UHGV virus genome: UHGV-0141068
Direction: 5' to 3' (one strand)
Origin: a virus
Length of the DNA: 28,359 nt
Made by a program: the position numbers and the translations under genes. The notes under the pieces were generated by a model. It made no database searches and was not told where the DNA came from. It saw only the letters and a list, made by a program, of their open reading frames with translations. Positions 12,045-28,248 of this stretch are shown here, piece after piece (positions within the stretch are counted from its first letter, which is position 1; the number at the start of each line of letters is the position of its first letter).

Positions 12045-12055
12045 ATTATTGATAT

Positions 12056-12545: not shown

Positions 12546-12576
12546 GCTTCATGTCGCCATCTTCGGCGAAAATCAC

Positions 12577-13329
12577 TTATCTCGTCACCTTTCTCAATTG
12601 CGTTTCAGCATATGCTTCTTCCTGCCAGCACTTTGTTACTAGTTTATCAATTACGTCTGCATATCCTTTGTACCACTGATAATCAGTCAGGTCTGGAACC
12701 AGCTTCTGGACATGACGTCGTGCCAGTGTAGTTGGTAAACGGCTAAACCGGTTTCCATTGCAACGCCCACAAATCTTATAAACAGGCGTGCCATGAAGCC
12801 GGGTCCTTTTTTCATCCAGGACAATACCTTTACCCTTACACCCTCTGCACGCTGTGCTGACTTCTCCCTTACCATGACAATGCTGACATAGTTCCTTCAC
12901 CCACTCTTCCTTGATAACAGATTCCCCGCTTCTGGAGTGTTTCACCACCTCGCGCAATACATTATGAAATCCAGTACCAGCACAATGCTCACAGCGAGCC
13001 TTACTTGCCGCAGACCTGGAATAATCAGCAAAGGCAAAATTCACAAGGTAAGGAATGATCTGTAGCCGGGTTTCTTCACTCAATTTATTCAATGTCGGGT
13101 TATCCAGTGCCATCGCGTAATTGAGCAGACCTTCAATCGCAAACTGAGGATCCTGAACACCAACTTTTGCCAGGAATAAGGCAAACCCAAGCGGTGCTTT
13201 CGACTGCACCATCCCCTGCGCAGCCATCACATCCGTAATCGTTAAACCACCAGAGCCTGTCGCCGGTGCGTCATCGCTCAGTTTTGGAGATTTCGGGGAG
13301 TAATATTTCGGTAAGGCTTCAAGGTTCAT
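12577..13329 (-). CDS. late antiterminator Q (Qin QuuQ-like type)
   Basis: 250 aa with four CxxCxGxG zinc-finger-like repeats; followed by promoter and terminator as expected for Q. Confidence 0.7.
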   Translation of the reverse strand: MNLEALPKYYSPKSPKLSDDAPATGSGGLTITDVMAAQGMVQSKAPLGFALFLAKVGVQDPQFAIEGLLNYAMALDNPTLNKLSEETRLQIIPYLVNFAFADYSRSAASKARCEHCAGTGFHNVLREVVKHSRSGESVIKEEWVKELCQHCHGKGEVSTACRGCKGKGIVLDEKRTRLHGTPVYKICGRCNGNRFSRLPTTLARRHVQKLVPDLTDYQWYKGYADVIDKLVTKCWQEEAYAETQLRKVTR

Positions 13330-13342
13330 GCTCGTTCTCCAC

Positions 13343-14338
13343 TTACGCCAGTACGCCTATTGCCAGCGCACGATCGATAAAACGAAATATCAGCTCCAGC
13401 TGGGAACCATACTTCTCTTCAAATGCCACGGTATCCGCATGCAGCTCGTCGTGATGCTTTCTGCACAAAGGCAACACAAAGAGGTCATGCGCTTTTGTAC
13501 CCATTCCCCCCTGACCGTGGCCTATCAGGTGGTGGGGATCATCAGCAGGCTTTCCACAACATGCACACGGCTGTGTCTTAACCCAGCGTGTGTACTTTTC
13601 ATTAACCCAGCGGCGACGTTTTGGGCGTAACATAAAAGACTCCGGCGACTCCGGATCCACTTTCAGCGCCAGCACCTTTTTCACCTTATCCTGGATGATG
13701 CTGGTGGCAGGAACCGAAGGCACAAGGTCACTTTCCCGGGTGACAGACGGCACAACAGGCTTCGGTAATCTCAGTGCCTTACGGGCTGCACTTTCCGGTA
13801 AGGCATCCGCCAGGTCATTACGAATCAGCCACCAGCACAGTTCCGGCATTGTCACAACGTGACTATCATCAAAACCGAGATCCCGACGCACAACAGACAA
13901 CACCCAGCGGGCACAGTTATCCGTTGCCATTGATTCCAGCCGTTCCGTGAACTGATCGCGCAGCTGGTTATCGCAGTGCCAGCACAGACGGATTGCGCCC
14001 GGCGCGTGTCGCATTGTTGTCATGTTCTCGCTGTGCCAGTCGGAATGAGGCCACTGGCAGCCTTTTTCACGAAGTAACCAGCTTTCAAGACATTCCACGC
14101 CACCAGCACGACGGATCACTGCCTCATTGCGGAACACGGCCCGAACGTCAGGATCATCCGCCAGCGGTTGTGATGCCGCCGGAACAGCACCACTGGCGAA
14201 AGATGAATAACGTTCCGGCTCAGGCTCCAGCAGGACACGCCCCTGCATAAACAGGGGCATCAGCTCTGAACCTGGTCTGAACAATACGATCCCCATACGC
14301 GGGGCAATTTCAGGGGTCAGTAGTGCTCTCACGGTCAC
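13343..14338 (-). CDS. DUF968-family prophage protein (YdfU-like)
   Basis: 331 aa with C-terminal Cys/His cluster (CACCGKP...HHLIGHG...CRKHH); adjacent to Q as in Qin-type prophages. Confidence 0.6.
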   Translation of the reverse strand: MTVRALLTPEIAPRMGIVLFRPGSELMPLFMQGRVLLEPEPERYSSFASGAVPAASQPLADDPDVRAVFRNEAVIRRAGGVECLESWLLREKGCQWPHSDWHSENMTTMRHAPGAIRLCWHCDNQLRDQFTERLESMATDNCARWVLSVVRRDLGFDDSHVVTMPELCWWLIRNDLADALPESAARKALRLPKPVVPSVTRESDLVPSVPATSIIQDKVKKVLALKVDPESPESFMLRPKRRRWVNEKYTRWVKTQPCACCGKPADDPHHLIGHGQGGMGTKAHDLFVLPLCRKHHDELHADTVAFEEKYGSQLELIFRFIDRALAIGVLA

Positions 14339-14339
14339 C

Positions 14340-15137
14340 TCAATGAACGGTATCGAGCAGCTTTAACAGCTCAGGGAATCGGGATTCGAAGAAATGCGGC
14401 TGCGTCTCACGCGGATTTGCGGGACTGGTGATATTCTTGCCGAACATGCAGCCTTTCGCTGTCAGCGACCAGAATTTTTTGATGTTGTTAATCGCTGTAC
14501 GGCTGTATCGTTCGCGCTGTTCGACGATCCCCAGCTTCGCCATCTGGTGATATGCCTGATTAGCCGTAAGGCGGATACCATACTGCTTCAGCAGTGCACT
14601 CAGTGACAGCGTGGGGCGGCTTGAGCCATCAGGCGCGTCAGCAGGAGCATCAATGGCATAGCGCGGTGCCAGATTCGGTAAGCCAACAGCCTCCTGAAGT
14701 TTCTGACAGGCTCCAAGCACTGAAGAGTTAGACAGATTTAACTCCCGGCGCATAAAGTCCAGCAGAATCACACCAGCCTGCATCTTGTCAGCAGCCTGTC
14801 CGGATAATTTTTCCGGTGCGCTGGTTACCATGTCGAAAGTACGGATCACCTTCAGATGGAATGACGGGCTGATCCACATTGCATAGGCATACACCAGTTC
14901 TTTGCAGACATACGTCCCCTGGTTATTTCCGCCACGAATAACGTTAACTGGCTCTATATTGACCGAGTTGCAAATCTGCAACTCGCTTATTAAACGCTCA
15001 GTTTGCTCATTGCGGAGCCAGAATGCAGGCTTATGCTTATCCAGAGAACCGGCAGCCCTGTGCAGATCGTTCAGGCTGTAACGCCCATAAGCATCACGAC
15101 GAACTTCAATACCATCAATGACCATCAGATTATTCAT
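14340..15137 (-). CDS. KilA-N domain protein
   Basis: N-terminal IDGIEVRRDAYGRYSLNDLHRAAG region typical of KilA-N; 265 aa. Confidence 0.65.
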   Translation of the reverse strand: MNNLMVIDGIEVRRDAYGRYSLNDLHRAAGSLDKHKPAFWLRNEQTERLISELQICNSVNIEPVNVIRGGNNQGTYVCKELVYAYAMWISPSFHLKVIRTFDMVTSAPEKLSGQAADKMQAGVILLDFMRRELNLSNSSVLGACQKLQEAVGLPNLAPRYAIDAPADAPDGSSRPTLSLSALLKQYGIRLTANQAYHQMAKLGIVEQRERYSRTAINNIKKFWSLTAKGCMFGKNITSPANPRETQPHFFESRFPELLKLLDTVH

Positions 15138-15156
15138 ACTTCGTTTCTCCTCTTAA

Positions 15157-15546
15157 TCAGGCGGCTGCACCCGCCGTTTTCTCGTACTTACTGATAGTGA
15201 TCTCGACCTTCCCTTCCGGGATAACCGGTCCCCACTCCACCAGCATTCTTTTCACCTGACTGTCGTCTTCCCACACACCCGCGTGGGTCAGGGCGTCAAA
15301 CAGCGCCTTGTTATAGTTGTCCAGATCGCGGATCCGGTTATCCGGAGGAAACAACACGATCTCCACTGAAGCAGGTGCCGACGTTGGTTTTGGCAGACGA
15401 CGTAACTGCTCAACTATTGCTGCACACGCCGCGCTCTGGAATTTGCGCCCCGCCGCGCTTATCAGGCTCTTACCTGCAAACGCCCCTTTGTTGGGGTGTC
15501 GCCAGTACGTGTTCACGCTGGGCGGGAAAGGCAGAATCAGCTTCAT
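15157..15546 (-). CDS. rusA: Holliday junction resolvase RusA
   Basis: 129 aa, MKLILPFPPSVNTYWR N-terminus and acidic catalytic region characteristic of RusA. Confidence 0.8.
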   Translation of the reverse strand: MKLILPFPPSVNTYWRHPNKGAFAGKSLISAAGRKFQSAACAAIVEQLRRLPKPTSAPASVEIVLFPPDNRIRDLDNYNKALFDALTHAGVWEDDSQVKRMLVEWGPVIPEGKVEITISKYEKTAGAAA

Positions 15547-15869
15547 ACTTTCAGACCCCTCTCATGTAACCAGTGGGCTGCACGCAGCCTGGCGTTTTCC
15601 TCACCGGCAAGCAGTGAGCGGATAATCCCGACCGCCTCGCTGTCGTCGTCCTTCACCGCGGTATGAAGCGTTATCCCCCGGGCCACACCACGCTTTATCG
15701 TGATGACGCCTTTTTTCTCCAGTGCGCGAAGATGCTCCACCGCTGCATTCACTGAACGATATCCCAGCATGGTTGCCACCTCCTGATTGGTTGGCGGAAA
15801 GCCACGCTCTTTCTGGTAAGAAATCAGCATATCCAGCACCTGCTGCTGGCATTGAGTTAACGTCGTCAT
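15543..15869 (-). CDS. LexA DNA-binding-domain protein lacking the S24 peptidase domain
   Basis: 108 aa; LTQCQQQVLDMLISY...PPTNQEVATMLGYRSVNAAVEHLRALEKKGVI mirrors the LexA N-terminal winged helix; no Ser/Lys protease domain follows. Confidence 0.65.
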   Translation of the reverse strand: MTTLTQCQQQVLDMLISYQKERGFPPTNQEVATMLGYRSVNAAVEHLRALEKKGVITIKRGVARGITLHTAVKDDDSEAVGIIRSLLAGEENARLRAAHWLHERGLKV

Positions 15870-16519
15870 GCCGCCATCTCCCTGACCAGTTTTTCCGCCT
15901 GCTGGCGAACCTGCGCCAGAAAGGCCTCACCACATGCCTCAAGTTCATCGCGCCCGATGTAGCTGATTGCCGGTCCCTTCCAGGTCTTGTCGAAAACAGC
16001 AATAGCACCAGCGAAGAAAGCGCCTGTCGGTACCTGCTTCTCGTCTTTCGGGATAAACCAGACAGGCAGTTCAAAACCAATACGCCCGCGAATAAAAGCA
16101 ATATGATCTGCATTTTCCGGCCACCACACTTCGCTGGTGGCAGCTTTGATCAGGAAAACATAGCGCCCGCCTTTATCACGCATGGCACTGGCATGCTTCA
16201 TGATGTAACGCATGCCGGTGATGTATTGCCCCTCATGCTGACTGGCGCGGCTGTATGGGGGATTACCAAAGGCAGCACCTTTAAGCTCCGCAAGACGTTC
16301 TGACCAGTCATGCGCCAGCGCGTTGTCTTCCGCCGTGTAATACGCGGCACATTTGGCGTTATCACCGTCAGTGAACAGATCCAGAACAAACGGGCCAAAC
16401 AGGGTGTTAATTCCCCAGAAAATGTTGTCCGGCGTGCGCCACTGATCGCCCACTTCCTTCAGTTCATGGGCTGGTTTGTTCCGCAGTTCCACCAGCGCCT
16501 GGCAATATTTATTACTCAT
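15866..16519 (-). CDS. phage DNA N6-adenine methyltransferase
   Basis: NPPY motif; start assigned to ATG at 16519 overlapping upstream stop (TAATG) rather than ORF-track start 16552. Confidence 0.8.
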   Translation of the reverse strand: MSNKYCQALVELRNKPAHELKEVGDQWRTPDNIFWGINTLFGPFVLDLFTDGDNAKCAAYYTAEDNALAHDWSERLAELKGAAFGNPPYSRASQHEGQYITGMRYIMKHASAMRDKGGRYVFLIKAATSEVWWPENADHIAFIRGRIGFELPVWFIPKDEKQVPTGAFFAGAIAVFDKTWKGPAISYIGRDELEACGEAFLAQVRQQAEKLVREMAA

Positions 16520-17013
16520 TAAGCCCCCACGTAATTCCCTGACAGATACCACTCTTCACCCGATGCAGCGCGCTTGCTGCTTTTCCGTAAGCACCGCTCA
16601 CGACGCGCCAGAAAATTGTTTCGCTCTTGCTGGGAGTGGCTTTCACGGAATGCCGCCATCCACACCGTTGCAGCACGACGGTATAAGCCCCTGGACTCCA
16701 GTTCTTCCGCCTGGCGGGTCAGGCACAAAATCTCCCGCGGGTCGTTAGTGCCGACATAGAAATTGCGCACAGGTCTGGTTTCACGAACTGGTTGCGGTTC
16801 CGCCTCCTGCGCTCTCTCAGTCAGGCGCGGGAAATGTCTGCGTGTATCCCCTTCACAACGGTGAGCCACACGACCACTCTGACGTAACTTGCTTGCTGAC
16901 TGCAGAACGCGCTGCCGTGAGTAACCTGCAAAAGCATCCGCAATGTCTCCGGAAGTACACCCCGGATGGGCTTCAATGTATTTCTGAACTTCATTCAAAA
17001 GACTCATGATCAC
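16519..17013 (-). CDS. PerC-like transcriptional regulator domain protein
   Basis: C-terminal LESRGLYRRAATVWMAA resembles the PerC family signature; N-terminal part HTH-like. Confidence 0.45.
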   Translation of the reverse strand: MIMSLLNEVQKYIEAHPGCTSGDIADAFAGYSRQRVLQSASKLRQSGRVAHRCEGDTRRHFPRLTERAQEAEPQPVRETRPVRNFYVGTNDPREILCLTRQAEELESRGLYRRAATVWMAAFRESHSQQERNNFLARRERCLRKSSKRAASGEEWYLSGNYVGA

Positions 17014-17951
17014 CCCCTGAATCCTGCCGGGATCTGGCTGTAGTCCACGTTGTCGTAACTGGCTTTGAAGTACGGGTCTTCGCGTTTTTCGGTGTACGTG
17101 CTGACGGACGGCGATAAGCGCAGGGAAAGCTCATCCCATTTTTCCCGCAGCTTCGACGGGCTGAGCACGTTACGGCACCAGAACGGATCGCGGCTGACGC
17201 GGCTGTACATCTCGCAGATTTGTTTGTGAGTACGACCATCCTGCACACACATCAGGCGAATTTCGTTTGCCCAGGCTGTCCAGTTCGGTTCTTTGGGACG
17301 AACCACCTCGCCGTCACATTCGGCGGCCTGCTCGTACAGGGCGATGATTTTTTTCCAGAGCCACTGTGCGCAGGTCAAATCATCCTGCGTTCCCCACTGG
17401 CGCTTTTTAGGGCTGAATACAACCGCATCAGGATGGCGAGTTAAAAACTCCTGTTCAGCCGTCTGCGTGTCCGGTTGCGAAGCGTCCGGACGAGAAGTTT
17501 TTTTATCTGACGGATCATGTTTTGATTTTACTGACGGATCCCCGCCAGATTCTGACGGGTGAAAACCCGCTTTTTTGCCAGATTTCGACGCATCAAATTT
17601 TGACGGGTCAGATTTTGATGCGTCAGATTTTGACGGGTCAGAATCTGACAGTTGAGAAAATGCCGCTGCCTGAAGCTTCGCAACGTTAAGCTGATAAACA
17701 TTCGACGCATTGCGGTTACCCTGGCGACGCGCCTTACGCGTTAACCAGCCTTCTGCTTCCAGCCGTGCGATAGCCGTTCTGACGGTACTCATCCCCGCGC
17801 CAATCTGACGGGCAATGGTTTCAATTGATGGCCAGCACACACCTTCGTCATTACTGAAATCAGCCAGGCGGGCCATAATTGCCACGCTGGATAATTTCAT
17901 GCCTGACGCAGCGCAACCATCCCATACATAGCCGGTTAATTTAGTGCTCAT
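17010..17951 (-). CDS. phage replication initiation protein (N-terminal HTH, DnaT-like C-terminal region)
   Basis: 313 aa; winged-helix N-terminus, low-complexity SKSD/DPSK centre encoded by iterons, conserved C-terminal region. Confidence 0.65.
   Translation of the reverse strand: MSTKLTGYVWDGCAASGMKLSSVAIMARLADFSNDEGVCWPSIETIARQIGAGMSTVRTAIARLEAEGWLTRKARRQGNRNASNVYQLNVAKLQAAAFSQLSDSDPSKSDASKSDPSKFDASKSGKKAGFHPSESGGDPSVKSKHDPSDKKTSRPDASQPDTQTAEQEFLTRHPDAVVFSPKKRQWGTQDDLTCAQWLWKKIIALYEQAAECDGEVVRPKEPNWTAWANEIRLMCVQDGRTHKQICEMYSRVSRDPFWCRNVLSPSKLREKWDELSLRLSPSVSTYTEKREDPYFKASYDNVDYSQIPAGFRG
17500..17655. repeat. iteron array, putative prophage replication origin
   Basis: Eight copies of an AGATTTTGACGGGTC-like unit; last four are tandem at 15-bp period (17595-17654); located inside the replication gene. 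Confidence 0.6.
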
Positions 17952-18299
17952 GACCGACCTCTATTTCCCTGAATTTACGACGAAACTGTTCGAGCGGGCT
18001 GAAGCACTCATGCTCATAGTCTTCGCGGAGGTAGATAACCCGTTGTGTTTCCGGCTCCCAACGAATGACTCTGACGGGTACTCCGTAGTGATCTTTGAAC
18101 CAGCGGTTAACTTGTCGCAAAGGACTGTCTCCTTCTGCCGGTTGAAATCACCCACAGCCCACTCTGCAAAGCTGTGGGTTACAATTTCCCTGTCACCTGG
18201 TACATTCACTGCATAGCAATATTCCACCTTCGCTTTTCCACCCGGTACAGGAAGCGCAATCAGTTGCGAGCGACGGTAGTGTGTTGTTAAACTGTTCAT
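17941..18299 (-). pseudogene. hypothetical gene with apparent -1 frame disruption (or two overlapping small genes)
   Basis: Protein-like N-terminus in one frame (18299 down to about 18130), protein-like C-terminus ([37 protein letters not shown]...) in the -1 frame ending at 17941; frames switch near 18118-18150. Confidence 0.35.
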
Positions 18300-18865
18300 G
18301 CGTTAGTTTCTCCACAACCAGAAGCAATCGACGCCACGACGCCCGGAGCTGCACACTCGCGGGCGTCATTACTTTCTGAAATGCAAAAAATTTTGTAGAC
18401 AAGTGCTGCATGCTCCTGCAGCTTCGAAATTGAGAGATACAGCTCGTCGTTAATTGCTGTCTTCTCATGCGGTTCCACTACACCGTCTTCGATTGCTGAA
18501 CGAATCTGTTTTGAATAACTGCCGATCTGTTCAATGACTTCCAGCAGACGCTGGTTAATATCGGCGTTGTCCACATCCTCGACGTCAGGAAGAGACACAA
18601 AGACGCCATTTGCAGACTGCGCCACAGCATCAGCAATGAAGTGAGTGCCACCAGCACGCTGTAAAACCATTGCCCATCCCAGCGGGAAAATCTGATCGCC
18701 ATCTGCACGAAGGCGGTTGAATAAAGCGTTTTCTGTTACATCGAGCCAGTCAGCCGCTTCAGCGTAACCACCCGGCAACGCCGCGATAGTTTTTCTGACA
18801 GCTTTCACGTACCACTCAGGCTGTTTTTCTATTTTCCAGTGATGCTTACCCACGATTAGCCTCAT
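18296..18865 (-). CDS. CII-like regulatory protein (CP76 type)
   Basis: 189 aa; [34 protein letters not shown] region resembles CII-type HTH; sits directly after cro-like gene. Confidence 0.45.
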
Positions 18866-18896
18866 CGTTCTGTGGTTAAAAATTGAAAGTGTTCTG

Positions 18897-19097
18897 CTAA
18901 TCTTTCGGATAGATATCCGGTCTTAAGTCAGATTTCGTAATTGCACCTGACGTGCATTGCTCAAGTTTTTTAGCCAGCACAAAACTGGCTTTTTTATAGC
19001 CATTGAAAACCAGCCGTAAGTAGCCAGGTGTTGAGCCAACTTTTCCGGCCAACTCGCCCTGCTGTTCTTTGGTTAAAGAGTCCCAATACGCTTTCAT
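18897..19097 (-). CDS. Cro/DicC-like repressor
   Basis: 67 aa from internal ATG 19097 with GGAGG RBS; the longer ORF-track version (to 19400) would overlap cI and the operators; architecture resembles DicC. Confidence 0.65.
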   Translation of the reverse strand: MKAYWDSLTKEQQGELAGKVGSTPGYLRLVFNGYKKASFVLAKKLEQCTSGAITKSDLRPDIYPKD

Positions 19098-19187
19098 ACA
19101 ATATGTACCTCCGATGTACATATTACATGATTGAAATGAACCTTCAAGATACTTGTACCTTAACGGTACAAGGGTTTTAATTTCGTT
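19098..19187. promoter_or_regulatory. OR-type operator/promoter region between cro-like and cI genes
   Basis: Two inverted repeats with GTAC cores: ATATGTAC-N7-GTACATAT (19101-19123) and CTTGTACC-N5-GGTACAAG (19152-19172); minus-strand PR candidate -35 TTGAAG (19147..19142), -10 TAATAT (19125..19120). Confidence 0.65.
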
Positions 19188-19862
19188 ATGAAAACAATCC
19201 ATGACATCCGGCGGTCTAACGCCAGAAAACTGAGAGATGGTGTTGGCGGGAATTCTTCCTTTGCCACTATGATTGATCGCGAGCCAACCCAGACCAGCAG
19301 GTTTATGGGAGATGGTGCTACTAAAAATATCGGTGACAGCATGGCACGACACATCGAAAAATGTTTCGACCTGCCTGTCGGATGGCTCGATCAAGAACAC
19401 CAGACAACGAACATCACAAAAAAACCTGATGTTTCAATCACTAATAAACAAATCACATTAGTCCCTGTCATATCATGGGTACAGGCCGGAGCATGGAAAG
19501 AAGTTGGATATTCTGAGGTTGATTTGAGCACAGCAGAAACGTATCCCTGCCCTGTCCCCTGTGGGGAAATGACTTATATCTTGCGGGTGATAGGTGATTC
19601 AATGATTGATGAGTACCGCCCGGGAGACATGATTTTTGTCGATCCTGAAGTACCTGCCTGCCACGGTGACGACGTTATTGCATTGATGCACGATACAGGT
19701 GAAACCACCTTCAAAAGGTTGATAGAAGATGGGACACAGCGTTATCTCAAAGCGTTAAACCCAAACTGGCCTGAGCCTTACATTAAGATCAACGGTAATT
19801 GCTCTATAATTGGTACAGTGATTTTCTCAGGAAAACCAAGAAGATACAAAATCAAAGCCTAA
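19188..19862 (+). CDS. CI-type prophage repressor with LexA/S24-like autocleavage domain
   Basis: 224 aa; C-terminal half (ISWVQAGAW, GDSM, FKRL, LNPNWP) is the S24 peptidase fold shared with lambda CI; no SD upstream, consistent with leaderless translation. Confidence 0.85.
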   Translation: MKTIHDIRRSNARKLRDGVGGNSSFATMIDREPTQTSRFMGDGATKNIGDSMARHIEKCFDLPVGWLDQEHQTTNITKKPDVSITNKQITLVPVISWVQAGAWKEVGYSEVDLSTAETYPCPVPCGEMTYILRVIGDSMIDEYRPGDMIFVDPEVPACHGDDVIALMHDTGETTFKRLIEDGTQRYLKALNPNWPEPYIKINGNCSIIGTVIFSGKPRRYKIKA

Positions 19863-19874
19863 TCAATGTTTATG

Positions 19875-19897
19875 AACCTGCTTCGGCAGGTTTTTTT
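19875..19897 (+). terminator. rho-independent terminator after cI
   Basis: AACCTGC-TTCG-GCAGGTT hairpin followed by T7. Confidence 0.75.
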
Positions 19898-19901
19898 ATA
19901 C

Positions 19902-19934
19902 TTGACAATGTACCTTTGAGATACATAATGTACC
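19902..19934 (+). promoter_or_regulatory. PL-like early-left promoter with operator half-sites
   Basis: TTGACA (19902-19907), 16-bp spacer, CATAAT (19924-19929); ATGTACC repeated at 19908-19914 and 19928-19934, same core as OR sites. Confidence 0.6.
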
Positions 19935-20034
19935 CAAGAGAAACAACAAACAGGCAGGACGTCCACGAAGTAGCCGCCTGGGGCATATGAAGTCCAAGAT
20001 GATTCGTTAGCAACAAAACGCCCATAGGACGCTT

Positions 20035-20053
20035 CGCTCTTTAACAATTTGAA
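20035..20053 (+). promoter_or_regulatory. boxA-like antitermination element (nutL-like)
   Basis: CGCTCTTTAACAATTTGAA, near-identical to the rrn boxA core GCTCTTTAACAATTT as recalled, about 110 nt downstream of PL. Confidence 0.55.
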
Positions 20054-20351
20054 TATTTTCAGCGTCAATGATCTGTTTAGCTCCCTACAAGTAAATGTAG
20101 CGTAGCACCATGATAAATCCTGCTAGTGTTTAGTTAAAAATCGCGCGAGAGCAAGAACGACGTGAGGGCAGGCAATATTGATAGTGTTATTGCTATTAGT
20201 TTATCAAAAATATTTAGACGACCCAGATGAATATTTTTAATACATACTCCCCCTAATTTAACAGGAGTAAATGTTGATGAATAACGAGACATCTATACTC
20301 AACAATTGTATGATATGAACAATTATATAACATAATGTAGGAAAAATAAAA

Positions 20352-20948
20352 ATGGATTGGCATGACCTTATATCAAAGGTAATTATCGGACTTGTTACAG
20401 GCTCAATCGCAGCTTACTTAACTGCGCGATATGCACTCGGCCGTTATTATAAAGAAAAATGGTGGGACAAAAGAATAGATTTGTATACGCAATTAGTTGA
20501 CTGTGTTTATCTTCTAAAAAACACAGCTGACTATTGGTATAAACATGAGTTACATCACGCTTCACAATTCCCAACCTACTTTAGTTACAAATCAAAAGAA
20601 GAAAATGAAATCCTTAGCAAATCTTTCTCTAATGAGCTTGAAAAACTCAGTAGAATAGGTGAGCTATCTTCATTATTCTTAACAGAAGAGTGTGGGGATA
20701 AAATCCGTTCATTCATTGAAAATGAAGAAAATCTATTTATACAATGGGAGTTTGATAGTATAGAGTTGATAGATGCCCACAAGTCAAGACTTGATAAATT
20801 AAAAGTATTACTAGACGATATTATCTCTGAAGCAAAGAGAGAGCTTAAGGTCAATAAAAAACATAACAGCCTAAAGAATATAAAGTGGTCCATAACTATG
20901 CCAGACCAAAAAAATGATGAGCCAATTAATTATTACGACAATCATTAA
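20352..20948 (+). CDS. membrane-anchored hypothetical protein (moron in early-left region)
   Basis: 198 aa, single N-terminal hydrophobic helix (VIIGLVTGSIAAYLTARYALG) then charged helical domain; markedly AT-rich; own terminator. Confidence 0.6.
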   Translation: MDWHDLISKVIIGLVTGSIAAYLTARYALGRYYKEKWWDKRIDLYTQLVDCVYLLKNTADYWYKHELHHASQFPTYFSYKSKEENEILSKSFSNELEKLSRIGELSSLFLTEECGDKIRSFIENEENLFIQWEFDSIELIDAHKSRLDKLKVLLDDIISEAKRELKVNKKHNSLKNIKWSITMPDQKNDEPINYYDNH

Positions 20949-20958
20949 AACACTTTAG

Positions 20959-20980
20959 AACCCGCTGGGCGGGTTTTATT
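20959..20980 (+). terminator. rho-independent terminator
   Basis: AACCCGC-TGG-GCGGGTT followed by TTTTATT, 11 nt after the stop codon. Confidence 0.7.
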
Positions 20981-21135
20981 CAAATATACTTTGCACATCA
21001 CAAATAAAACTATAACGTCCTTCTTCTTTTCCTAATATCTTATATCTACTTATTTATAAGCGGCTTACAGATCTTCAACAGATAAACCTAATGAAGGCGA
21101 CAATGTTCTGATGAATAGCCACCTTTTTACTCAAC

Positions 21136-21258
21136 TGAAAGCGCGTTCTGTCCCTTGTCATTAAGTGCCAGTTCGTTAAGTCCAAAACCTCCGGAACGCG
21201 CTTTCAATTGAGTGGGGAAAATAACTGGCGATGGCAGCCGCCCGTTGCACTAAGTGCC
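21136..21258. promoter_or_regulatory. structured intergenic element of unknown function
   Basis: 12-13 bp inverted repeat GAAAGCGCGTTC / GAACGCGCTTTC (21137-21148, 21194-21205) enclosing TTAAGTGCC-type direct repeats (21159-21169, 21176-21183, 21248-21258). Confidence 0.4.
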
Positions 21259-21370
21259 TCTGGATGGGGCATTTACTGAAACGAAACCAAAACTTTTAAT
21301 CGCCTTATGGCGAGGGATTCGTGCAACCAAAAATCGTGCGGTGCAGCGCACCAATTAAGGAGAACTAACG

Positions 21371-21907
21371 ATGAGTTTTATCCAGACTCTTACCGGTAAG
21401 AAGTTCAATTATATCAACTCCACCATTGACGATATTTATATCGAGGATATCGCCGGTGCGCTTTCAAATATCTGCCGCTTCGCGGGACACTTGCCGGATT
21501 TTTACAGCGTGGCGCAGCATTCCGTTCTGTGCAGTCAACTTGTGGCGCCAGAGTTCGCCTTTGAAGCGTTAATGCATGATGCAACAGAAGCGTATTGTCA
21601 GGACATCCCCGCGCAACTGAAACGCCTTCTTCCTGACTATAAACGGATGGAAGAAAAAATAGACGCCGTAATCCGTGAGAAATACGGGTTACCCCCGGTT
21701 ATGAGCACGCCCGTGAAATATGCCGATCTCATCATGCTGGCAACCGAACGCCGCGATCTCGGGCTTGATGATGGCTCTTTCTGGCCTCTACTGGAAGGTA
21801 TCCCAGCAACAGAGATGTTCAAAGTTATTCCACTGTCGCCAGGCCATGCCTACGGGATGTTTATGGAACGTTTTAACGAGTTATCGGAGTTACGCAAATG
21901 CGCATGA
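21371..21907 (+). CDS. HD-domain phosphohydrolase (YfbR/YfdR-like)
   Basis: 178 aa with H..H (VAQHSV) and HD (MHDATEAY) metal-binding motifs; strong RBS AAGGAGA. Confidence 0.65.
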   Translation: MSFIQTLTGKKFNYINSTIDDIYIEDIAGALSNICRFAGHLPDFYSVAQHSVLCSQLVAPEFAFEALMHDATEAYCQDIPAQLKRLLPDYKRMEEKIDAVIREKYGLPPVMSTPVKYADLIMLATERRDLGLDDGSFWPLLEGIPATEMFKVIPLSPGHAYGMFMERFNELSELRKCA

Positions 21908-22260
21908 ATGTTTTCGAAATGGAAGGGTTTCTTCGCGGGAAATGTGTACCGCGAGATCTGAAAGTGAATGAAACGGATGCTGAATACCTGGTGCGTAAAT
22001 TCGATGCGCTTGAAGCTAAATGTGCGGCACTGGAAAACAAAGTAATACCAGTGTCAACTGAACTGCCACCAGCAAATGAAAGTGTTTTGTTATTCGATGC
22101 TAACGGAGAAGGCTGGCTAATTGGCTGGCGTTCTCTCTGGTACACCTGGGGACAAAAAGAAACCGGAGACTGGCAGTGGACATTTCAGGTCGGGGACCTT
22201 GAAAACGTCAATATCACTCACTGGGCAGTAATGCCAAAAGCACCGGAGGCTGGAGCATAA
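21898..22260 (+). CDS. DUF551-like phage protein
   Basis: 120 aa, Trp-rich C-terminus with THWAVMP motif; overlaps HD gene end. Confidence 0.5.
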   Translation: MRMNVFEMEGFLRGKCVPRDLKVNETDAEYLVRKFDALEAKCAALENKVIPVSTELPPANESVLLFDANGEGWLIGWRSLWYTWGQKETGDWQWTFQVGDLENVNITHWAVMPKAPEAGA

Positions 22261-22565
22261 TGACCACTTTTACCGACAAAGAACTGATTAAAGAAATCAA
22301 AGAGCGTATCAGCAGCCTTGACGTGCGAGACGATATTGAGCGCCGTGCTTATGAAATCGCACTCCTATCTCTGGAAGTAGAGCCAGATGAACGCGAATCC
22401 TATGAATTATTTATGGAAAAACGTTTCGGTGGCTTAGTAGATAGTCGGAGAGCAAAAAACGGCGATAACGAATACATGGCATGGGATATGACTCTCGGTT
22501 GGATCGTCTGGCAACAACGAGCTGGCATTCATTTTTCAACAATATCACAGCAAGAGGTGAAATAA
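22260..22565 (+). CDS. hypothetical protein
   Basis: 101-aa ORF, ATGA overlap with upstream gene, TAATG overlap with xis. Confidence 0.5.
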   Translation: MTTFTDKELIKEIKERISSLDVRDDIERRAYEIALLSLEVEPDERESYELFMEKRFGGLVDSRRAKNGDNEYMAWDMTLGWIVWQQRAGIHFSTISQQEVK

Positions 22566-22915
22566 TGGAACCATACAGCCTCACGCTAGATGAGGCCTGT
22601 CATTTTCTCAAGATATCCAGACCGACTGCCATTAACTGGATACGCACAGGGCGTCTGCAGGCAACACGCAAAGATCCCACTAAGAATAAATCTCCTTACC
22701 TCACAACACGACAAGCCTGCATTGCGGCGCTTCAGTCTCCGCTGCATACTGTCCAGGTGAGCGCGGGTGATGGCATAACAGAGGAAAGAAAATGTCACTC
22801 TTCCGCAGAGGTGAAATATGGTACGCCAGTTTCACATTGCCGAACGGTAAAAGATTTAAACAGTCTCTTGGAACAAAGGACAAAAGGCAGGCGACAGAAC
22901 TCCATGACAAGCTAA
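22565..22915 (+). CDS. xis: excisionase (P22 Xis-like, AlpA-type HTH)
   Basis: 116 aa from ATG 22565; [36 protein letters not shown]; 3' end overlaps integrase start. Confidence 0.8.
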
Positions 22916-23955
22916 AGGCTGAAGCATGGCGGGTCAGCAAACTTGGTGAAATTCCTGATATAACGTTCGAGGAAGCGTGTGTCAGGTGGCTTGAAGAGAA
23001 AGCACATAAAAAATCACTGGACGATGACAAAAGCCGGATCGGATTCTGGCTTCAACATTTCGCAGGAATGCAACTAAGAGACATTACTGAATCAAAAATT
23101 TATTCAGCAATGCAGAAAATGACGAACCGGCGTCATGAGGAAAACTGGAAACTCAGGGCAGAAGCATGCAGAAAAAAAGGGAAACCTGTTCCAGAATACA
23201 CGCCAAAACCAGCGTCCGTTGCAACGAAGGCTACGCATCTTTCATTTATAAAGGCCCTGCTAAGAGCCGCAGAGCGTGAATGGAAAATGCTGGATAAGGC
23301 ACCAATTATTAAAGTGCCTCAACCAAAGAATAAACGGATCCGCTGGCTGGAGCCTCATGAAGCACAAAGGCTGATTGATGAATGTCCGGAGCCATTAAAG
23401 TCTGTTGTTGAATTTGCACTTGCAACAGGCTTAAGACGCTCGAACATCATCAACCTTGAATGGCAACAAATAGACATGCAGCGCCGGGTGGCATGGATAA
23501 ACCCGGAAGAGAGTAAATCAAACCGCGCAATTGGCGTTGCGCTGAATGATACTGCATGTCGCGTATTGAAAAAACAAATCGGGAATCATCACCGTTGGGT
23601 ATTTGTGTATAAGGAAAGCTGTACCAAACCAGACGGAACGAAAGCGCCAACAGTCAGGAAGATGCGGTATGACGCAAACATAGCCTGGAAAGCGGCGCTG
23701 AGACGAGCAGGTATTGATGATTTCAGATTTCACGACTTGAGACACACCTGGGCAAGTTGGCTGGTTCAAGCCGGAGTCCCGTTATCAGTGTTACAGGAAA
23801 TGGGAGGCTGGGAGTCTATCGAAATGGTTCGTCGATATGCTCACCTCGCACCTAATCACCTTACCGAACACGCACGGCAAATAGACTCGATTCTGAACCC
23901 ATCGGTCCCAAATTTGTCCCAGTCAAGAAATAAGGAAGGTACTAATGATGTGTAA
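22792..23955 (+). CDS. int: tyrosine integrase, P22-type
   Basis: 387 aa; [15 protein letters not shown]-terminus and C-terminal R...HxxR...Y catalytic region (HDLRHTWAS...MVRRYAHL); adjacent to tRNA-Thr-derived att core. Confidence 0.9.
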
Positions 23956-23969
23956 CTTATTGATTTAAA

Positions 23970-24021
23970 TGGTGCCGATAATAGGAGTCGAACCTACGAC
24001 CTTCGCATTACGAATGCGAAG
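23970..24021 (-). other. attachment-site core: 3' fragment of a tRNA-Thr(CGU) gene (not a complete tRNA)
   Basis: Reverse complement reads anticodon stem-loop (TCGCA-TTCGTAA-TGCGA, anticodon CGT), T-arm GGTTCGACTCC and acceptor 3' strand ending CCA; no D-arm or 5' acceptor strand upstream. Confidence 0.75.
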
Positions 24022-24103
24022 TTTTTATATTTTAACTGCTTGAACAACCATCAGAAATCACAAATTTATCATTTTAAATCATAATATTAAAACAAAAAAC
24101 CTG

Positions 24104-24129
24104 TTGATGTAAATTGATGAGTGTTGATG
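24104..24129 (+). repeat. three TTGATG direct repeats at 10-bp phasing upstream of integrase
   Basis: TTGATG at 24104, 24114, 24124; further TTGAT/ATCAA copies at 25508-25537 just after the integrase stop. Confidence 0.5.
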
Positions 24130-24201
24130 TTTATCCTTTCAATTTACTTACACCAGCCGTTACATTACTGTAAACCGTAATCCCCAACAGGAACCCTAAA
24201 A

Positions 24202-25521
24202 ATGGCGCTTTCAAGACAAAAACTAACCTTCGAACGAATTCGAAGATTTACTTTACCTGAAGGGAAAAACCAAGTTTTCCTTTGGGATACGGACGTAACA
24301 AGCTTGGCATGTCGAGCAACTCGTGGAGCAAAAGCCTTTGTATTCCAAAGCCTGTATGCGGGAAAAACCCTTCGCATGACCATTGGCAACATTAACGATT
24401 GGAGGATTGATGATGCGAGGGCCGAAGCCAGGCGACTGCAAACATTAATCGATACTGGGATAGATCCGCGTATAGCTAAGGCGGAAAAAATTGCTGAAGC
24501 GGAATCACAGCAGGCTGAATCTCGTAAAACGAAGGCAACCTTTTCAAGCGCTTGGGAAGATTATCTTGATGAATTGAGAACCGGAATCAGCGCAAAAACT
24601 AAACGCCCCTACTCTGCACGCTACATTGCCGATCACGTTAACTTGTCCAGTCGTGGAGGCGAAAGTAAAAAAAGAGGCCGGGGCCCAACCTCACCTGGGC
24701 CACTGGCTAGCCTGCTCGACCGACCATTATCAGAACTAACACCAGAGAACATTGCCGAATGGCTAAGTACAGAGAGACAAAATCGGCCTACCGTCACTGC
24801 TCATGCCTACCGTCTGTTGCGTGCATTCATCAAATGGGCTAATTACCAGAAAAAATATCAGGGAATAATCGATGGCGATCTTGCACAAGATCATAACGTG
24901 AGAAAAATGGTTCCAATATCAGCGAGCAAAGCGGGAGATTGCTTACAAAAAGAACAGCTCAAAAGCTGGTTCAGTGCCGTGCGTAGCCTCAATAATCCCA
25001 TTGCATCAGCCTATCTCCAAGTGCTTTTGCTCACCGGTGCACGGCGTGAAGAAATTTCCTCACTTCGCTGGTCTGACATAGATTTCAAATGGTCAAGCAT
25101 GAGAATTAAAGACAAGATCGAAGGCGAGCGAATTATCCCCCTCACTCCCTATGTTTCTGACTTGTTACGCTCACTGATGGAGATCCCCAATCGTGGTACA
25201 AACGAGGAGAATTGGGTTTTCAGAAGTAACAGCAAAAGTGGCAAAATTATTGAACCGCGTTCAGCACATAATAGAGCATTAACTCGCGCGGAGTTACCAC
25301 ATATCAGCTTGCACGGATTGCGCCGTAGTTTTGGGACCCTCGCTGAATGGGTCGAAGTACCAACAGGTATTGTTGCGCAGATTATGGGCCATAAGCCTAG
25401 CGCTCTTGCTGAAAAGCACTATCGCCGCCGTCCATTAGATTTGCTAAGAAAATGGCATGAAAAAGTTGAATTATGGATCTTAGAAGAAGCAAAAATAAAA
25501 AACAACGTTGATAAGCGTTGA
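24202..25521 (+). CDS. tyrosine integrase, P4 type
   Basis: 439 aa; N-terminal arm-binding-like region, C-terminal catalytic R..HGLRRS..Y region (LHGLRRSFGT, HY near the end). Confidence 0.85.
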   Translation: MALSRQKLTFERIRRFTLPEGKNQVFLWDTDVTSLACRATRGAKAFVFQSLYAGKTLRMTIGNINDWRIDDARAEARRLQTLIDTGIDPRIAKAEKIAEAESQQAESRKTKATFSSAWEDYLDELRTGISAKTKRPYSARYIADHVNLSSRGGESKKRGRGPTSPGPLASLLDRPLSELTPENIAEWLSTERQNRPTVTAHAYRLLRAFIKWANYQKKYQGIIDGDLAQDHNVRKMVPISASKAGDCLQKEQLKSWFSAVRSLNNPIASAYLQVLLLTGARREEISSLRWSDIDFKWSSMRIKDKIEGERIIPLTPYVSDLLRSLMEIPNRGTNEENWVFRSNSKSGKIIEPRSAHNRALTRAELPHISLHGLRRSFGTLAEWVEVPTGIVAQIMGHKPSALAEKHYRRRPLDLLRKWHEKVELWILEEAKIKNNVDKR

Positions 25522-25635
25522 TTTTATCAAATATCAACAACTTACATAAAATCACATGTGTTGACAGAAATTTTTTTTCAGTTATCTTTTATTACTGCTA
25601 ACTACATTCACTCACTAAGCAGGAGATTAACTACA

Positions 25636-26061
25636 GTGACTAACCCAATAACTGTATCAAGAGAAGACCGAAGTGCGGAAATCAGAGCGAGATGGGGTTT
25701 ACATCCGACTAAAAACAAAAGTTCTAATTTTTGGGAAACAACAATTCAGCGTTTTAATAATAGTAGTACTGACCGAATACTACCTCTTTGGCACCGTGTT
25801 TCAAAACTTTTAGTTGCTATTAGGAATGTAGTCAATACTATAACATGCCTTTTTCCACCAAAGGGGAATACTTCCCGCTCACGCCGAAGTTCAACAACGT
25901 CATCAAAAAACTCATCATCATCTTCATCGGATGGTAGTAGTAGCGACCCCGATCCCGATAGAGACCCCATATTCACCCCTTTTCATTTCATTCTTTCATC
26001 TCTGTTAAAAACAATGATCGTCTTATTTGCCCACATATCAAATGTTGGGGTGATGAAATGA
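25636..26061 (+). CDS. Ser-rich hypothetical protein with hydrophobic C-terminus
   Basis: GTG at 25636 with AGGAG RBS 10 nt upstream; low-complexity S/D stretch; stop overlaps AlpA-like start; candidate -35 TTGACA at 25561. Confidence 0.35.
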   Translation: MTNPITVSREDRSAEIRARWGLHPTKNKSSNFWETTIQRFNNSSTDRILPLWHRVSKLLVAIRNVVNTITCLFPPKGNTSRSRRSSTTSSKNSSSSSSDGSSSDPDPDRDPIFTPFHFILSSLLKTMIVLFAHISNVGVMK

Positions 26062-26279
26062 GCGATATCAAACATCAAAAACCCTCTCAGTCACAACTAA
26101 TTTCTACCCGCGAGTTAGCTAATATTATTGGCTATGAAGTACAAACTATTCGAGCTTGGCTTTGCAAAGACAAACTGCCTAATGGTTTACCGCGACCGAA
26201 GAAAATTAAAAACCGACACTATTGGTCACGTAAAGACATTGATAGATACCTATTAACCTTCTCAGTATATAGTAACTAA
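26058..26279 (+). CDS. AlpA-family HTH regulator / excisionase-like
   Basis: 73 aa; LISTRELANIIGYEVQTIRAWLCKDKLP HTH typical of AlpA/Vis-type proteins. Confidence 0.7.
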   Translation: MSDIKHQKPSQSQLISTRELANIIGYEVQTIRAWLCKDKLPNGLPRPKKIKNRHYWSRKDIDRYLLTFSVYSN

Positions 26280-26290
26280 TAGAGGCCTCC

Positions 26291-26316
26291 CCCGGCTATT
26301 CTAAAGAATAGCCGGG
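26291..26316 (+). other. perfect 11-bp palindrome (terminator-like hairpin or operator)
   Basis: CCCGGCTATTC-TAAA-GAATAGCCGGG between AlpA-like and RHH-protein genes; weak T-tract. Confidence 0.5.
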
Positions 26317-26401
26317 TTAGTTAATACAAACCTTCCATTAACAATGGGGGGAGATTAATACTATTTATCACATCTCACATTAACAAAATTCAAGGTCACA
26401 T

Positions 26402-27166
26402 ATGAAAAAACGCATCACTTTCAGCGTAAACAATAGTTCTACTATTGATGCAATTGACGACTATAGCAATGCAAAAGGATACTCCAGGTCAGAGGTGATA
26501 TCATTTTTATTAAACGCCACAGTCCCAGCATTGAATAAAATAACATCGCAATATCATATAGCTCAAACTTTGGAGTCAACATTAGGCTGTATTTTTGAAG
26601 AGAAGGTCCCGTCAATAGCACGGGGGGAGCCAAAATTAACTTACGAAGAGTTTTTTCATTCCGTCTGGAACACTCACATTCGACACCGGAACGAGGTTGT
26701 CGATCAAGATTTTTATGCGCACAAAATACCTCATGATAAGATGGGTAAGAGCGAAAAAAAATTAATTCATGAAAAGCTCTCATACATTATAAAAAGTTTC
26801 AATGTAAAAAAAGCAATTTTTATTTACACAGATCGGCGCGTGAACCACAAACATCTCATTGCAGGAGGGTTATCTAATATCATACTGATAAAGGAAACAG
26901 TCTACGATGGTTGTTTTTTTGATTTGAGCAGCATTGTGATTATGCCAATCTTTGAACTTATTACATTTGGAGTTGAAGCAGTATTGAAAAGAAATAAAAC
27001 TCCCCCTAAACAATCATGCTATTGCTGGATACCAATTTATTACACAAATGATCTAGCGGTAATGGTCCCTGTGATTGCCGAAGGCGATACACCTCAAAAG
27101 GCGATGAAAGGAGGAGATGCCATCATTATTAACCCCTTTAACGGTGAAGTAAGCCATACTTTCTGA
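26402..27166 (+). CDS. RHH-domain fusion protein of unknown function
   Basis: 254 aa; N-terminus (KKRITFSVNNSSTIDAIDDYSNAKGYSRSEVISFLL) looks like a ribbon-helix-helix; about 200-aa C-terminal domain unrecognised; AT-rich. Confidence 0.55.
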   Translation: MKKRITFSVNNSSTIDAIDDYSNAKGYSRSEVISFLLNATVPALNKITSQYHIAQTLESTLGCIFEEKVPSIARGEPKLTYEEFFHSVWNTHIRHRNEVVDQDFYAHKIPHDKMGKSEKKLIHEKLSYIIKSFNVKKAIFIYTDRRVNHKHLIAGGLSNIILIKETVYDGCFFDLSSIVIMPIFELITFGVEAVLKRNKTPPKQSCYCWIPIYYTNDLAVMVPVIAEGDTPQKAMKGGDAIIINPFNGEVSHTF

Positions 27167-27248
27167 TACCAATGTTAAGCATAACCACTTAGTTGCATAC
27201 ATCTCGACAGTATGGAGTTAGTACCTAATAGCTTGATGAGGGTAAAAG

Positions 27249-27425
27249 ATGCCTACTAACAAAGCAAAATCAAAGAAAATTCTAGGAAGGCCTGAAGGAA
27301 GTAAATATTCCCATTTAATTCAGAGTGAGAAGGCTAAGCATTACTCTCAATCCAAGGTGGCAAAGATCTTAGGAATAAGTATTTCCACGGTAAAAAGACA
27401 CTGGGATAACGGCATCTTTGGGTGA
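27249..27425 (+). CDS. small HTH protein
   Basis: 58-aa ORF below ORF-track cutoff; GAGGG RBS 7 nt upstream; SKVAKILGISISTVKRHW helix-turn-helix. Confidence 0.45.
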   Translation: MPTNKAKSKKILGRPEGSKYSHLIQSEKAKHYSQSKVAKILGISISTVKRHWDNGIFG

Positions 27426-27627
27426 TTATAATTGCAGAGTTGCTTTTTAATTATTTTACTGCATGGGTAATGGGTTGATAACAAGTTTTATTGTTGGAAA
27501 GGTATTATATAACAGTCATTACTATTAATAGTTAATTAATATAACTAACCACAGACATTCAGCTATGTCTGATCATATTACTATATACGGCTATCCAAAG
27601 CCGTAGGGCTAACGACAGGATCGAAAC

Positions 27628-28248
27628 ATGGAATTATATCATGGTTCCCATGGTGAGCATGTGCTCGCCTATAAAAAACATATTGAACGAGTCGTCAATG
27701 ATGCTATCAGTGAATTCCCCAGAACAATGGCGTTACGTGTTGATGTTCATTATCCACCCATTTTAGACAGAGGTGACACTGTTTGCTGTTTTCCTAATCT
27801 AGAGCCTGGTGCCATATCCCGTTTCCGTAATGCATTAAATGCCATGTTGGAGGCCAATGAGAGAACCAGAGCAGCTAACGGCAAAAGAATATATCCAAAC
27901 CGTGTTCGTCATGTTTGGGCACGGGAGTTTTCCGAAGAAGGAAAATGTCACTTTCACCTTGGTCTTTTTTTTAACAAAGATGCTTATTACCATTTAGGTG
28001 ATTATGAGGCTGAAAGAAATTTAAGGATGATGATTGTAAGAGCATGGTATAGCGCACTGGGATTGGAACTGGATGATTATCCGGGATTGGTTCACTACCC
28101 TGAAAATTGTCGTTATATTTTAGACGTCAATGATTTTAACTTTGAAGGAGAATACAATAAATTACTGAATCGTCTCGACTACCTAGCTAAACTCGATACA
28201 AAAGCATATGGAGATGGCGACCGTAGCTTCGGCTGCAGTCGCGGGTAA
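27628..28248 (+). CDS. YagK/YfjJ-family protein
   Basis: 206 aa; family typical of CP4-type cryptic elements, assigned from memory of conserved regions. Confidence 0.55.
   Translation: MELYHGSHGEHVLAYKKHIERVVNDAISEFPRTMALRVDVHYPPILDRGDTVCCFPNLEPGAISRFRNALNAMLEANERTRAANGKRIYPNRVRHVWAREFSEEGKCHFHLGLFFNKDAYYHLGDYEAERNLRMMIVRAWYSALGLELDDYPGLVHYPENCRYILDVNDFNFEGEYNKLLNRLDYLAKLDTKAYGDGDRSFGCSRG

Follow-up and report, generated by a model that had tools for sequence, protein, structure and literature searches.

A 49-nt thrW fragment between two integrase genes as the probable att junction of an SfV-like prophage and a CP4-6-type island

Introduction

What does the 3' part of a tRNA gene signify when it lies between two unlike integrase genes? 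The question is raised by a stretch of 28,359 nucleotides, UHGV virus genome UHGV-0141068 (hereafter the window, meaning the whole stretch analysed), in which a piece of a threonine tRNA gene separates an integrase of the P22/SfV family from one of the IntF/CP4-6 type. The gene concerned, thrW, ranks among the tDNA hotspots that are most often used in E. coli (PMC7545054). The initial annotation offered two accounts of the locus, either the tandem integration of two elements at a single tRNA locus or a prophage that used the partial tRNA copy left by an older element as a secondary att site. Here, we describe a computational follow-up, from which we conclude with high confidence that the fragment is a hybrid att junction within a tandem array of integrative elements at thrW.

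The window, a contig built from short reads, starts in the end of an IS30 element and finishes in Illumina adapter sequence. Neither an intact thrW nor the distal att copy is included in it, and the array was read from the complete genome of E. coli ECONIH4, to which the window is ~99.95% identical. ISSpu7 is present in ECONIH4 and absent from the window.

Results

The 3' part of thrW, CGCATTCGTAATGCGAAGGTCGTAGGTTCGACTCCTATTATCGGCACCA, has an exact 49-nt match on the minus strand of the window at 23970-24018, which occurs once in the window and in none of 100 shuffles. The match runs from the anticodon stem to the CCA end, contains the anticodon CGT as the reverse complement of 24010-24012 (tRNA-Thr(CGU)), and agrees at 49/49 nt with thrW of ECONIH4, K-12 and CX21. 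A tRNA-Thr(CGU) 3' piece of about 50 nt had been noticed here in the initial annotation, and the match bears this out, with no intact gene at the site. The distances given for it are slightly revised, to 14 nt rather than 15 between the stop codon of the first integrase gene (TAA, 23953-23955) and the CCA end of the fragment, and to 183 nt rather than 180 between the fragment and the ATG of the second (24202). The two integrase genes are on the same strand, 246 nt apart. The following features define the junction itself:

23970..24018, minus strand: thrW 3' fragment and att junction, tRNA-Thr(CGU) (exact match; SfIV attP alignment; homologous loci)
23970-24015, minus strand: 46-nt core of SfV/SfIV/P22 type, within the 49-nt fragment
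23952..23969, minus strand: 18-nt flank 3' of the tRNA end, TTTAAATCAATAAGTTAC in tRNA orientation (SfIV attP alignment; AW1.7 flank)

The 18-nt flank holds the int1 stop codon and is part of the int-side arm of the phage attP, and it is also identical to the native chromosomal flank of AW1.7. As both the 46-nt core and this flank are the same in the phage and in AW1.7, the phage and the ancestral attB have 64 nt in common. For IntF-type islands the identity block is all 49 nt of the fragment, the equivalent of the fragment upstream of intF in K-12 that is annotated as the gene ptwF (PMC13170351).

To the left of the fragment lies most of a prophage:

49..23969, no strand assigned: right-hand 24 kb of an SfV-like prophage, its left end being beyond the window (CX21, SfV and ECONIH4 annotation)
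22565..22915, plus strand: excisionase gene (xis), overlapping the int start (the matching sequence of SfIV and P22 is annotated as an excisionase)
22792..23955, plus strand: Int1, tyrosine integrase of the P22/SfV family, 387 aa (Pfam Phage_integrase, E = 2e-47)

The prophage part carries modules for an HK97-type head, a Mu-type contractile tail, lysis, regulation, xis and int, and matches phage SfV at 65% coverage and 95.9% identity, with head and tail genes 96-98% identical to those of SfV, SfII and SfIV. Over the full 387 aa, Int1 shares 99.5% of its residues with SfIV Int and 89.4% with P22 Int, so that its first labelling as P22-type is sound. The int and xis open reading frames appear intact as read, and the counterpart of xis in ECONIH4 is labelled by PGAP as a helix-turn-helix protein. 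In ECONIH4 the prophage is 38.6 kb long, IS excluded; in the source strain of the window it appears to be interrupted by IS30.

The SfIV attP is 46 bp, is identical in SfI and SfV, and serves integration at thrW (PMC3851460). Aligned with the window, one side of the SfIV attP matches the 3' end of int1, the 18-nt flank and the 46-nt core, and its other side matches the sequence past the distal core copy in ECONIH4. The 46-nt core is found at both prophage ends, the near one in the window and the far one in ECONIH4 and CX21, and the two ends rejoin into the SfIV attP (int-side arm, 46-nt core, other arm).

To the right of the fragment the window enters the integrase-proximal end of an island:

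24019..24201, plus strand: int-proximal att arm of the island (homologous loci; the same arm is upstream of K-12 intF)
24202..25521, plus strand: Int2, tyrosine integrase of IntF/CP4-6 type, 439 aa, apparently intact (Pfam; identity to K-12 IntF)
25558..28248, plus strand: int-proximal module of the island (Pfam HTH_17 and YagK_YfjJ_C; K-12 gene order)
25558-26061, plus strand: yagN-like gene (31% identity to K-12 YagN)
26058-26279, plus strand: gene for an AlpA/Vis-type HTH_17 protein, ykgV-like (66% identity to K-12 YkgV)
26402-27166, plus strand: yagM-like gene (32% identity to K-12 YagM)
27628-28248, plus strand: yagK/YfjJ-like gene (Pfam YagK_YfjJ_C)

Int2 matches Arm-DNA-bind_3 (PF13356, E = 1.7e-10) and Phage_integrase (PF00589, E = 2.7e-18) in Pfam and is 89% identical to K-12 IntF over 439 aa (IntF residues 26-466); the genes that follow it keep the K-12 CP4-6 order of yagN-, ykgV-, yagM- and yagK-like genes. 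Copies 100% identical to Int2 occur in AW1.7, MS6192 and a MAG from the Enterobacteriaceae. In NCBIfam, both integrases had only generic Xer-type matches below cut-off, and the neighbouring genes had none of use. PGAP flags int2 as a pseudogene with an internal stop because the K-12 IntF model starts 25 codons further upstream, and here this annotated N-terminal extension is shut by a stop codon. Since the domain begins ~10 residues into the 439-aa form, as it does in the 439-aa integrase of P4, we take Int2 as intact, and it should probably not be called a pseudogene. The initial annotation had called this integrase P4-type, which fits its architecture (domains, 439 aa, repeats before the core) and does not extend to sequence relatedness: direct BLASTP against P4 Int gave 25% identity over 129 aa (pairwise E = 3e-5), and P4 was not among the matches listed when 50,697 phage records were searched by tblastn with Int2 (E <= 1e-5). 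A close relation to P4 was rejected on both searches, and as the similarity is only remote the protein is named here as IntF/CP4-6-type.

In ECONIH4 the 3' core of thrW is present in three copies, all in one orientation. The intact thrW lies beside proA, ~44 kb to the right of the window's fragment, and the third copy, which closes the prophage on its far left, has 46 nt identical to thrW and is followed by a flank identical to the K-12 thrW-to-ykfI flank, which runs into ykfI/yafW of CP4-6. In tRNA orientation, the order is proBA, intact thrW, an island region ending in the inward-facing int2, the 49-nt copy, the SfV-like prophage, the 46-nt copy, and a CP4-6-type island that begins with ykfI/yafW; a heat-resistance locus lies further out, past this last island. 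The initial annotation had proposed locating the intact tRNA-Thr gene and other att copies in the full genome; both are present in ECONIH4.

The thrW-proximal end of the array is not of the ykfI type that the island shows in AW1.7; it is the end of another element, with an AAA ATPase, an S8 peptidase and remnants of tra genes, that occurs in 33 genomes. The interior of the island region is full of IS elements and has one internal boundary without a core copy. This thrW-proximal end was considered as the Int2 island's own and rejected, as it belongs to a different, degenerate element of conjugative type, with IS-mediated scrambling. Given this non-ykfI end at thrW, IS-mediated loss and at least one more integration are assumed; at least four elements and some deletions are involved in the ECONIH4 array.

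Such a junction would arise if both integrases recombine within the part of thrW that runs from the anticodon loop to the 3' end, in which case each integration would rebuild a complete tRNA on one side and leave a 3' copy on the other. To the left of 23970 the window continues into the int-side arm of the phage attP, and to the right of 24018 into that of the island. In the history that we consider most likely, and reasonably probable, a ykfI-type island would have been resident first, a phage would have entered intact thrW, and the int2 island would then have entered the thrW rebuilt by the phage, pushing the prophage outward and leaving the 49-nt copy as its own distal att site. We infer this order rather than read it directly, since both possible orders give identical junctions. 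The core and flank copies, compared for signs of integration order, contained no informative SNPs, and population data must therefore decide.

Junctions were counted in 5426 complete E. coli genomes. An SfIV-type int lies directly against intact thrW-proA in 1218 of these. The int1-fragment-int2 junction was found in seven (two at 100% identity and five with the K-12 intF allele), and the prophage-core-ykfI flank seen in ECONIH4 in 18, most of them, including CX21, at 100% identity. CX21 carries the same prophage between the ykfI flank and intact thrW-proA, and in CX21 and its relatives int1 also lies against intact thrW. ECONIH4 and CX21 are 100% identical over 3.1 kb of proAB and 99.97% identical over the prophage; a patch of the ykfI-side island differs by 1.3%, so the two are not strictly clonal.

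The opposite order, in which the int2 island came first and an SfV-like phage used its 49-nt fragment as a secondary attB, is a possible history that we regard as rather unlikely for the window. The fragment retains the anticodon stem-loop in full and all that follows towards the 3' end, and thereby covers the 46-nt phage core plus 3 nt. In PD7 and four similar genomes, moreover, an SfV-like prophage sits exactly inside K-12-type ptwF, one junction consisting of the K-12 intF arm, 49 nt and a phage flank, and the other of the phage arm, 46 nt and the native yagP flank of K-12. The CP4-6 proteins of PD7, IntF among them, are identical to those of K-12, and as K-12 has the same island without a phage, integration of a phage into the fragment is the simplest reading of PD7. 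Evidently, then, a phage can use the 49-nt fragment as an attB. Against the same course of events in the window, the same prophage with the same distal junction is found at intact thrW in at least 14 genomes, so that the opposite order needs two independent phage integrations beside the same flank. Its required precursor, with the int2 arm, the fragment and the ykfI flank and no prophage between, was found in 0/5426 genomes, which is weak evidence because the int2 island is itself rare (~8 genomes). In the one laboratory test, finally, in which SfI entered the attL of an SfX already resident at thrW and formed a tandem pair (Sun et al. 2011, PMC3306764), the newcomer went to the attL that carried the intact tRNA. 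The secondary att site of the initial annotation is thus possible, and simplest for PD7, while for the window it is the less parsimonious choice, the population data favouring arrival of the island after the prophage.

Arrival of the int2 island after the prophage concerns two elements, and each of these is found alone in other strains. Positions 49-24018 of the window match CX21, which has no int2, at 99.983% identity, and the match ends exactly at 24018, the last base of the shared core. Conversely, int2 occurs at 99.8-100% identity and with the prophage absent in AW1.7, MS6192 and an Enterobacteriaceae MAG. The Int2 island of AW1.7 forms a complete element of CP4-6 type, 44.5 kb long (in order, intact thrW, ykfI, defence genes, scr sucrose genes, int2, fragment, yagP), and in MS6192 yet another element follows the island's fragment. 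SfV and SfIV likewise have no int2 in their genomes, where attP joins the two prophage ends. The strains lacking one element, a comparison that the initial annotation had suggested, accordingly exist for both sides, and together with the ECONIH4 array they uphold its main proposal of two independent elements in tandem at one tRNA locus. A composite, with both integrases in one prophage or island and the tRNA piece as an internal attP or relic, might be suggested by two genes so close together and on one strand, and is very improbable: the identity to each partner stops exactly at the core edges, and the strains with each element alone effectively refute a single element with two integrases. 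Membership of the right-hand integrase in the same prophage, which the initial annotation named as fatal to its proposal, is ruled out by the same strains.

An intact, divergent and possibly functional tRNA gene at this position is just as hard to credit. The Rfam tRNA model does score 36.3 bits over 23973-24045, across its full length and above the gathering score of 29. In that alignment, two acceptor-stem pairs are flagged as non-standard, and the putative D arm, as read from the sequence, consists of A and U only, without G18-G19, with a C in place of U8 and with one D-stem pair broken. ARAGORN, run on the window, called no tRNA. Of the 27 positions on the 5' side only 10 agree with thrW, and this 5' stretch differs among homologous islands, in which the 49 nt are invariant. 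We attribute the Rfam score to the genuine 3' two-thirds of a tRNA that are present, and the intact gene was rejected on the absence of an ARAGORN call, the broken stems and the unconserved 5' half. On this re-inspection the site, where an intact gene would have overturned the initial annotation, came out as a fragment.

An assembly artefact is the least credible reading, since the complete genomes ECONIH4 and CAVP776 contain the identical junction (901 nt at 100%) and five further genomes a homologous one, against which stands only that a short-read contig with adapter and IS30 ends could be chimeric at a repeated 49 nt, a repeat shorter than a read that might still mislead an assembler.

The island arm between the fragment and int2 is A/T-rich and variable near the core and then passes into conserved repeat blocks, with a further cluster at the end of int2:

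24103..24129, plus strand: three (G/A)TTGAT(G) repeats in 10-nt phase (conserved at homologous loci)
24142..24167, plus strand: 26-nt box, ATTTACTTACACCAGCCGTTACATTA, nearly invariant (alignment of homologous loci)
25507..25538, plus strand: second GTTGAT cluster, overlapping the int2 stop (conserved in the K-12, Citrobacter and Scandinavium homologues)

Phased TTGATG repeats had been seen before the right-hand integrase in the initial annotation; they start at 24104, 24114 and 24124, exactly 10 nt apart, and are conserved across genera. For this comparison the Citrobacter, Kluyvera, Scandinavium and K-12 loci were aligned and the Enterobacteriaceae MAG locus was read alongside (five loci); a contig scan with Int2 gave four loci and serves as a conservation check, not as statistics. 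The ptwF-like layout, with the 49-nt fragment ~180 nt upstream of int and divergent from it, is the same in K-12, Citrobacter, Kluyvera and Scandinavium. The order at the homologous loci is the 49-nt fragment, ~85 nt of variable A/T-rich sequence, three (G/A)TTGA(T/C) units, the box and the int start. Repeats 1 and 3 (GTTGAT) are invariant and repeat 2 is nearly so in these four, while the spacers vary. The fragment copy of the Enterobacteriaceae MAG has one C missing.

The second cluster comprises two direct GTTGAT motifs 10 nt apart and one inverted copy, and is followed downstream by a TTGACA hexamer and the next operon. A copy of the 26-nt box is also found on the ykfI-side arm (between thrW and ykfI) of CP4-6-type islands, in the same orientation and preceded by two phased TTGAT units. 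A promoter scan of 23900-24260 found only weak 9/12 matches (4 found against 1.3 expected), from which nothing is drawn.

From their placement and conservation, the GTTGAT repeats and the box probably bind the arm domain of the integrase and/or the AlpA/Vis-type HTH_17 protein (26058-26279). An excision or regulatory protein is a further candidate binder of the repeats at 24103..24129. More tentatively, the 49 nt of pseudo-thrW may be an additional, functional landing pad for SfV/P22-type phages, for which PD7 speaks, and the repeats on both sides of intF-type genes, together with the box on both arms, may form an uncharacterised operator and recombination-directionality system, read by the AlpA/Vis-like HTH protein, that couples int expression to excision; we hold this wider proposal to be somewhat less likely than otherwise.

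Discussion

Every component of the locus has a close counterpart that is already described, namely ptwF-intF of K-12, the phages SfV, SfIV and P22 at thrW, and tandem lysogeny, and the exact int1-fragment-int2 junction is already in two public complete genomes. As thrW is a well-known integration hotspot, the finding is real but ordinary, and it leaves current understanding unchanged.

For annotation, the locus is best described as an att junction (a ptwF-like pseudo-tRNA) between two mobile elements, and not as a tRNA gene or as a prophage with two integrases. It is a small and clean natural example of the growth of an array at a tRNA hotspot, and it suggests that partial tRNA copies remain usable as att sites. 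The repeats around intF-type genes are a cheap target for a study of CP4-6 excision control.

Like P4, the Int2 island has a 439-aa integrase with an Arm-DNA-bind_3 N-terminus and, nearby, a gene for a small HTH protein of Vis/AlpA type. In P4 the int start is ~150-180 nt from the core, with int transcribed away from it, as for int2, and short direct repeats occupy the stretch from int to the core and recur on the other arm, a layout that the Int2 arm shares. The two differ in that P4 has a 20-nt core in leuX rather than thrW, and their repeat sequences are unrelated. The P4 core is also in the opposite orientation relative to int, which places Int2 at the island end far from the intact tRNA.

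The closest relative of the island is CP4-6 of K-12, which has the same 49-nt fragment at the same distance upstream of intF, in divergent orientation, with the same GTTGAT repeats and 26-nt box. The Int2 island is nevertheless a different allele, with scr sucrose and defence genes as cargo in AW1.7 and ECONIH4 and with accessory proteins that are only 31-66% identical to those of CP4-6. Next to the fragment comes the native yagP-pao flank in K-12, whereas here it is the prophage that follows.

Similarly, the prophage shares with the thrW-integrating phages of the SfV family and P22 its Int, the 46-nt core, both attP arms (SfIV) and head and tail genes. At the far prophage end in ECONIH4 and CX21, however, the annotation gives hypothetical genes in the place of gtr serotype-conversion genes. 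The int-side att site here adjoins an island arm rather than the 5' half of thrW.

The nearest parallel for the array as a whole is the SfI/SfX pair in Shigella flexneri, in which two head-to-tail elements with separate integrases have an att copy between them, as here, and in which the incoming phage took the att site with the intact tRNA, the kind of site that the int2 island would have entered in the history favoured above. That pair consists of two phages and was made in the laboratory, whereas the array described here joins a phage to a non-phage island of CP4-6 type in a natural isolate and comprises at least four elements.

In E. coli PD7 (region L010, NZ_CP074047.1 3546000-3595500), an SfV-like prophage lies exactly inside a K-12-type ptwF, the partial copy of the tRNA-Thr(CGU) gene thrW found beside intF, with yagP and intF on either side and the CCA ends of its two core copies (thrW 3' copies at the element boundaries) at 5797 and 45541. 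The same type of junction is present in four other genomes, and PD7 is a natural case of a partial tRNA copy used as a phage attachment site.

In strain ECONIH4, the intact thrW gene is adjoined by an element (region L003, 19958-23906; also in region L016 of strain 14EC047) that carries an AAA ATPase and S8 peptidase pair and HigA, along with traJ, trbJ and trbL remnants. This is a separate thrW-targeting element; it is present in 33 genomes and, in about half of the matches listed, sits beside a partial core copy and not the intact tRNA. Inside the same thrW-proximal island array, ECONIH4 and 14EC047 also carry the heat-resistance locus, with clpK, hsp20-GI, yfdX1/2 and kefB-GI among its genes, located as follows.

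ECONIH4, region L002, 1-9576, and region L008, 39563-45415: locus of heat resistance
14EC047, region L016, 19297-34454: locus of heat resistance

The 49-nt thrW 3' fragment of the window is identical to thrW. The island-side fragment of strain AW1.7 has a G-to-T change (TATCGTCACCA; region L005, 6020-6030), and that of an Enterobacteriaceae MAG (CAUSEC010000067.1, region L013) has a 1-nt deletion. Just past int1, the P22/SfV-family integrase gene of the prophage, the sequence antisense to the tRNA anticodon arm (24001-24021, + strand) folds into a 9-bp hairpin with a T-run after it, flagged as terminator-like; its loop (UUACGAA) resembles the tRNA-Arg2 anticodon loop. Antisense transcripts of thrW and ptwF are among the candidate TadA editing substrates listed in a 2026 mBio paper (PMC13170351).

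For the island integrase gene, int2 (IntF/CP4-6 type), the PGAP annotation gives a pseudogene that contains an internal stop (window 24127-24201; ECONIH4 region L001, 20528-21922) because the K-12 IntF model begins 25 codons upstream, at an ATG within the third TTGATG repeat. Alignment and domain position suggest that int2 and K-12 IntF alike would start at the ATG equivalent to 24202, in which case the K-12 IntF annotation may be too long. At the other end of int2 lies a further set of repeats.

25507-25538: second GTTGAT repeat cluster, two direct copies 10 nt apart and one inverted copy, overlapping the int2 stop codon

This cluster is conserved in the homologues from K-12, Citrobacter and Scandinavium, has a TTGACA hexamer downstream of it at about 25561, and may be an operator of the yagN-like/HTH_17 operon.

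At the left end of the window, positions 1-55 match one end of an ECONIH4 IS30 copy (region L001, 37364-37418) at 100% identity, and prophage sequence starts at about 49-56, within the tail-tube gene; IS30 therefore probably interrupts this prophage in the source strain, and the prophage may be defective. At the right end, ECONIH4, AW1.7 and MS6192 all run on identically with the window as far as 28311, and none of the three matches the last 48 bases (28312-28359, CTGTCTCTTATACACATCTGACGCTGCCGACGA...), which we take to be Illumina Nextera transposase adapter read-through; this stretch is contig-end contamination and not genome sequence.

In the prophage, the tail-fibre segment flanked by pinE lies in opposite orientations in ECONIH4 (region L002, 24551-27038) and strain CX21 (region L009, 8721-11505), an inversion as would be expected of an invertible host-range switch of the Pin/Gin type.
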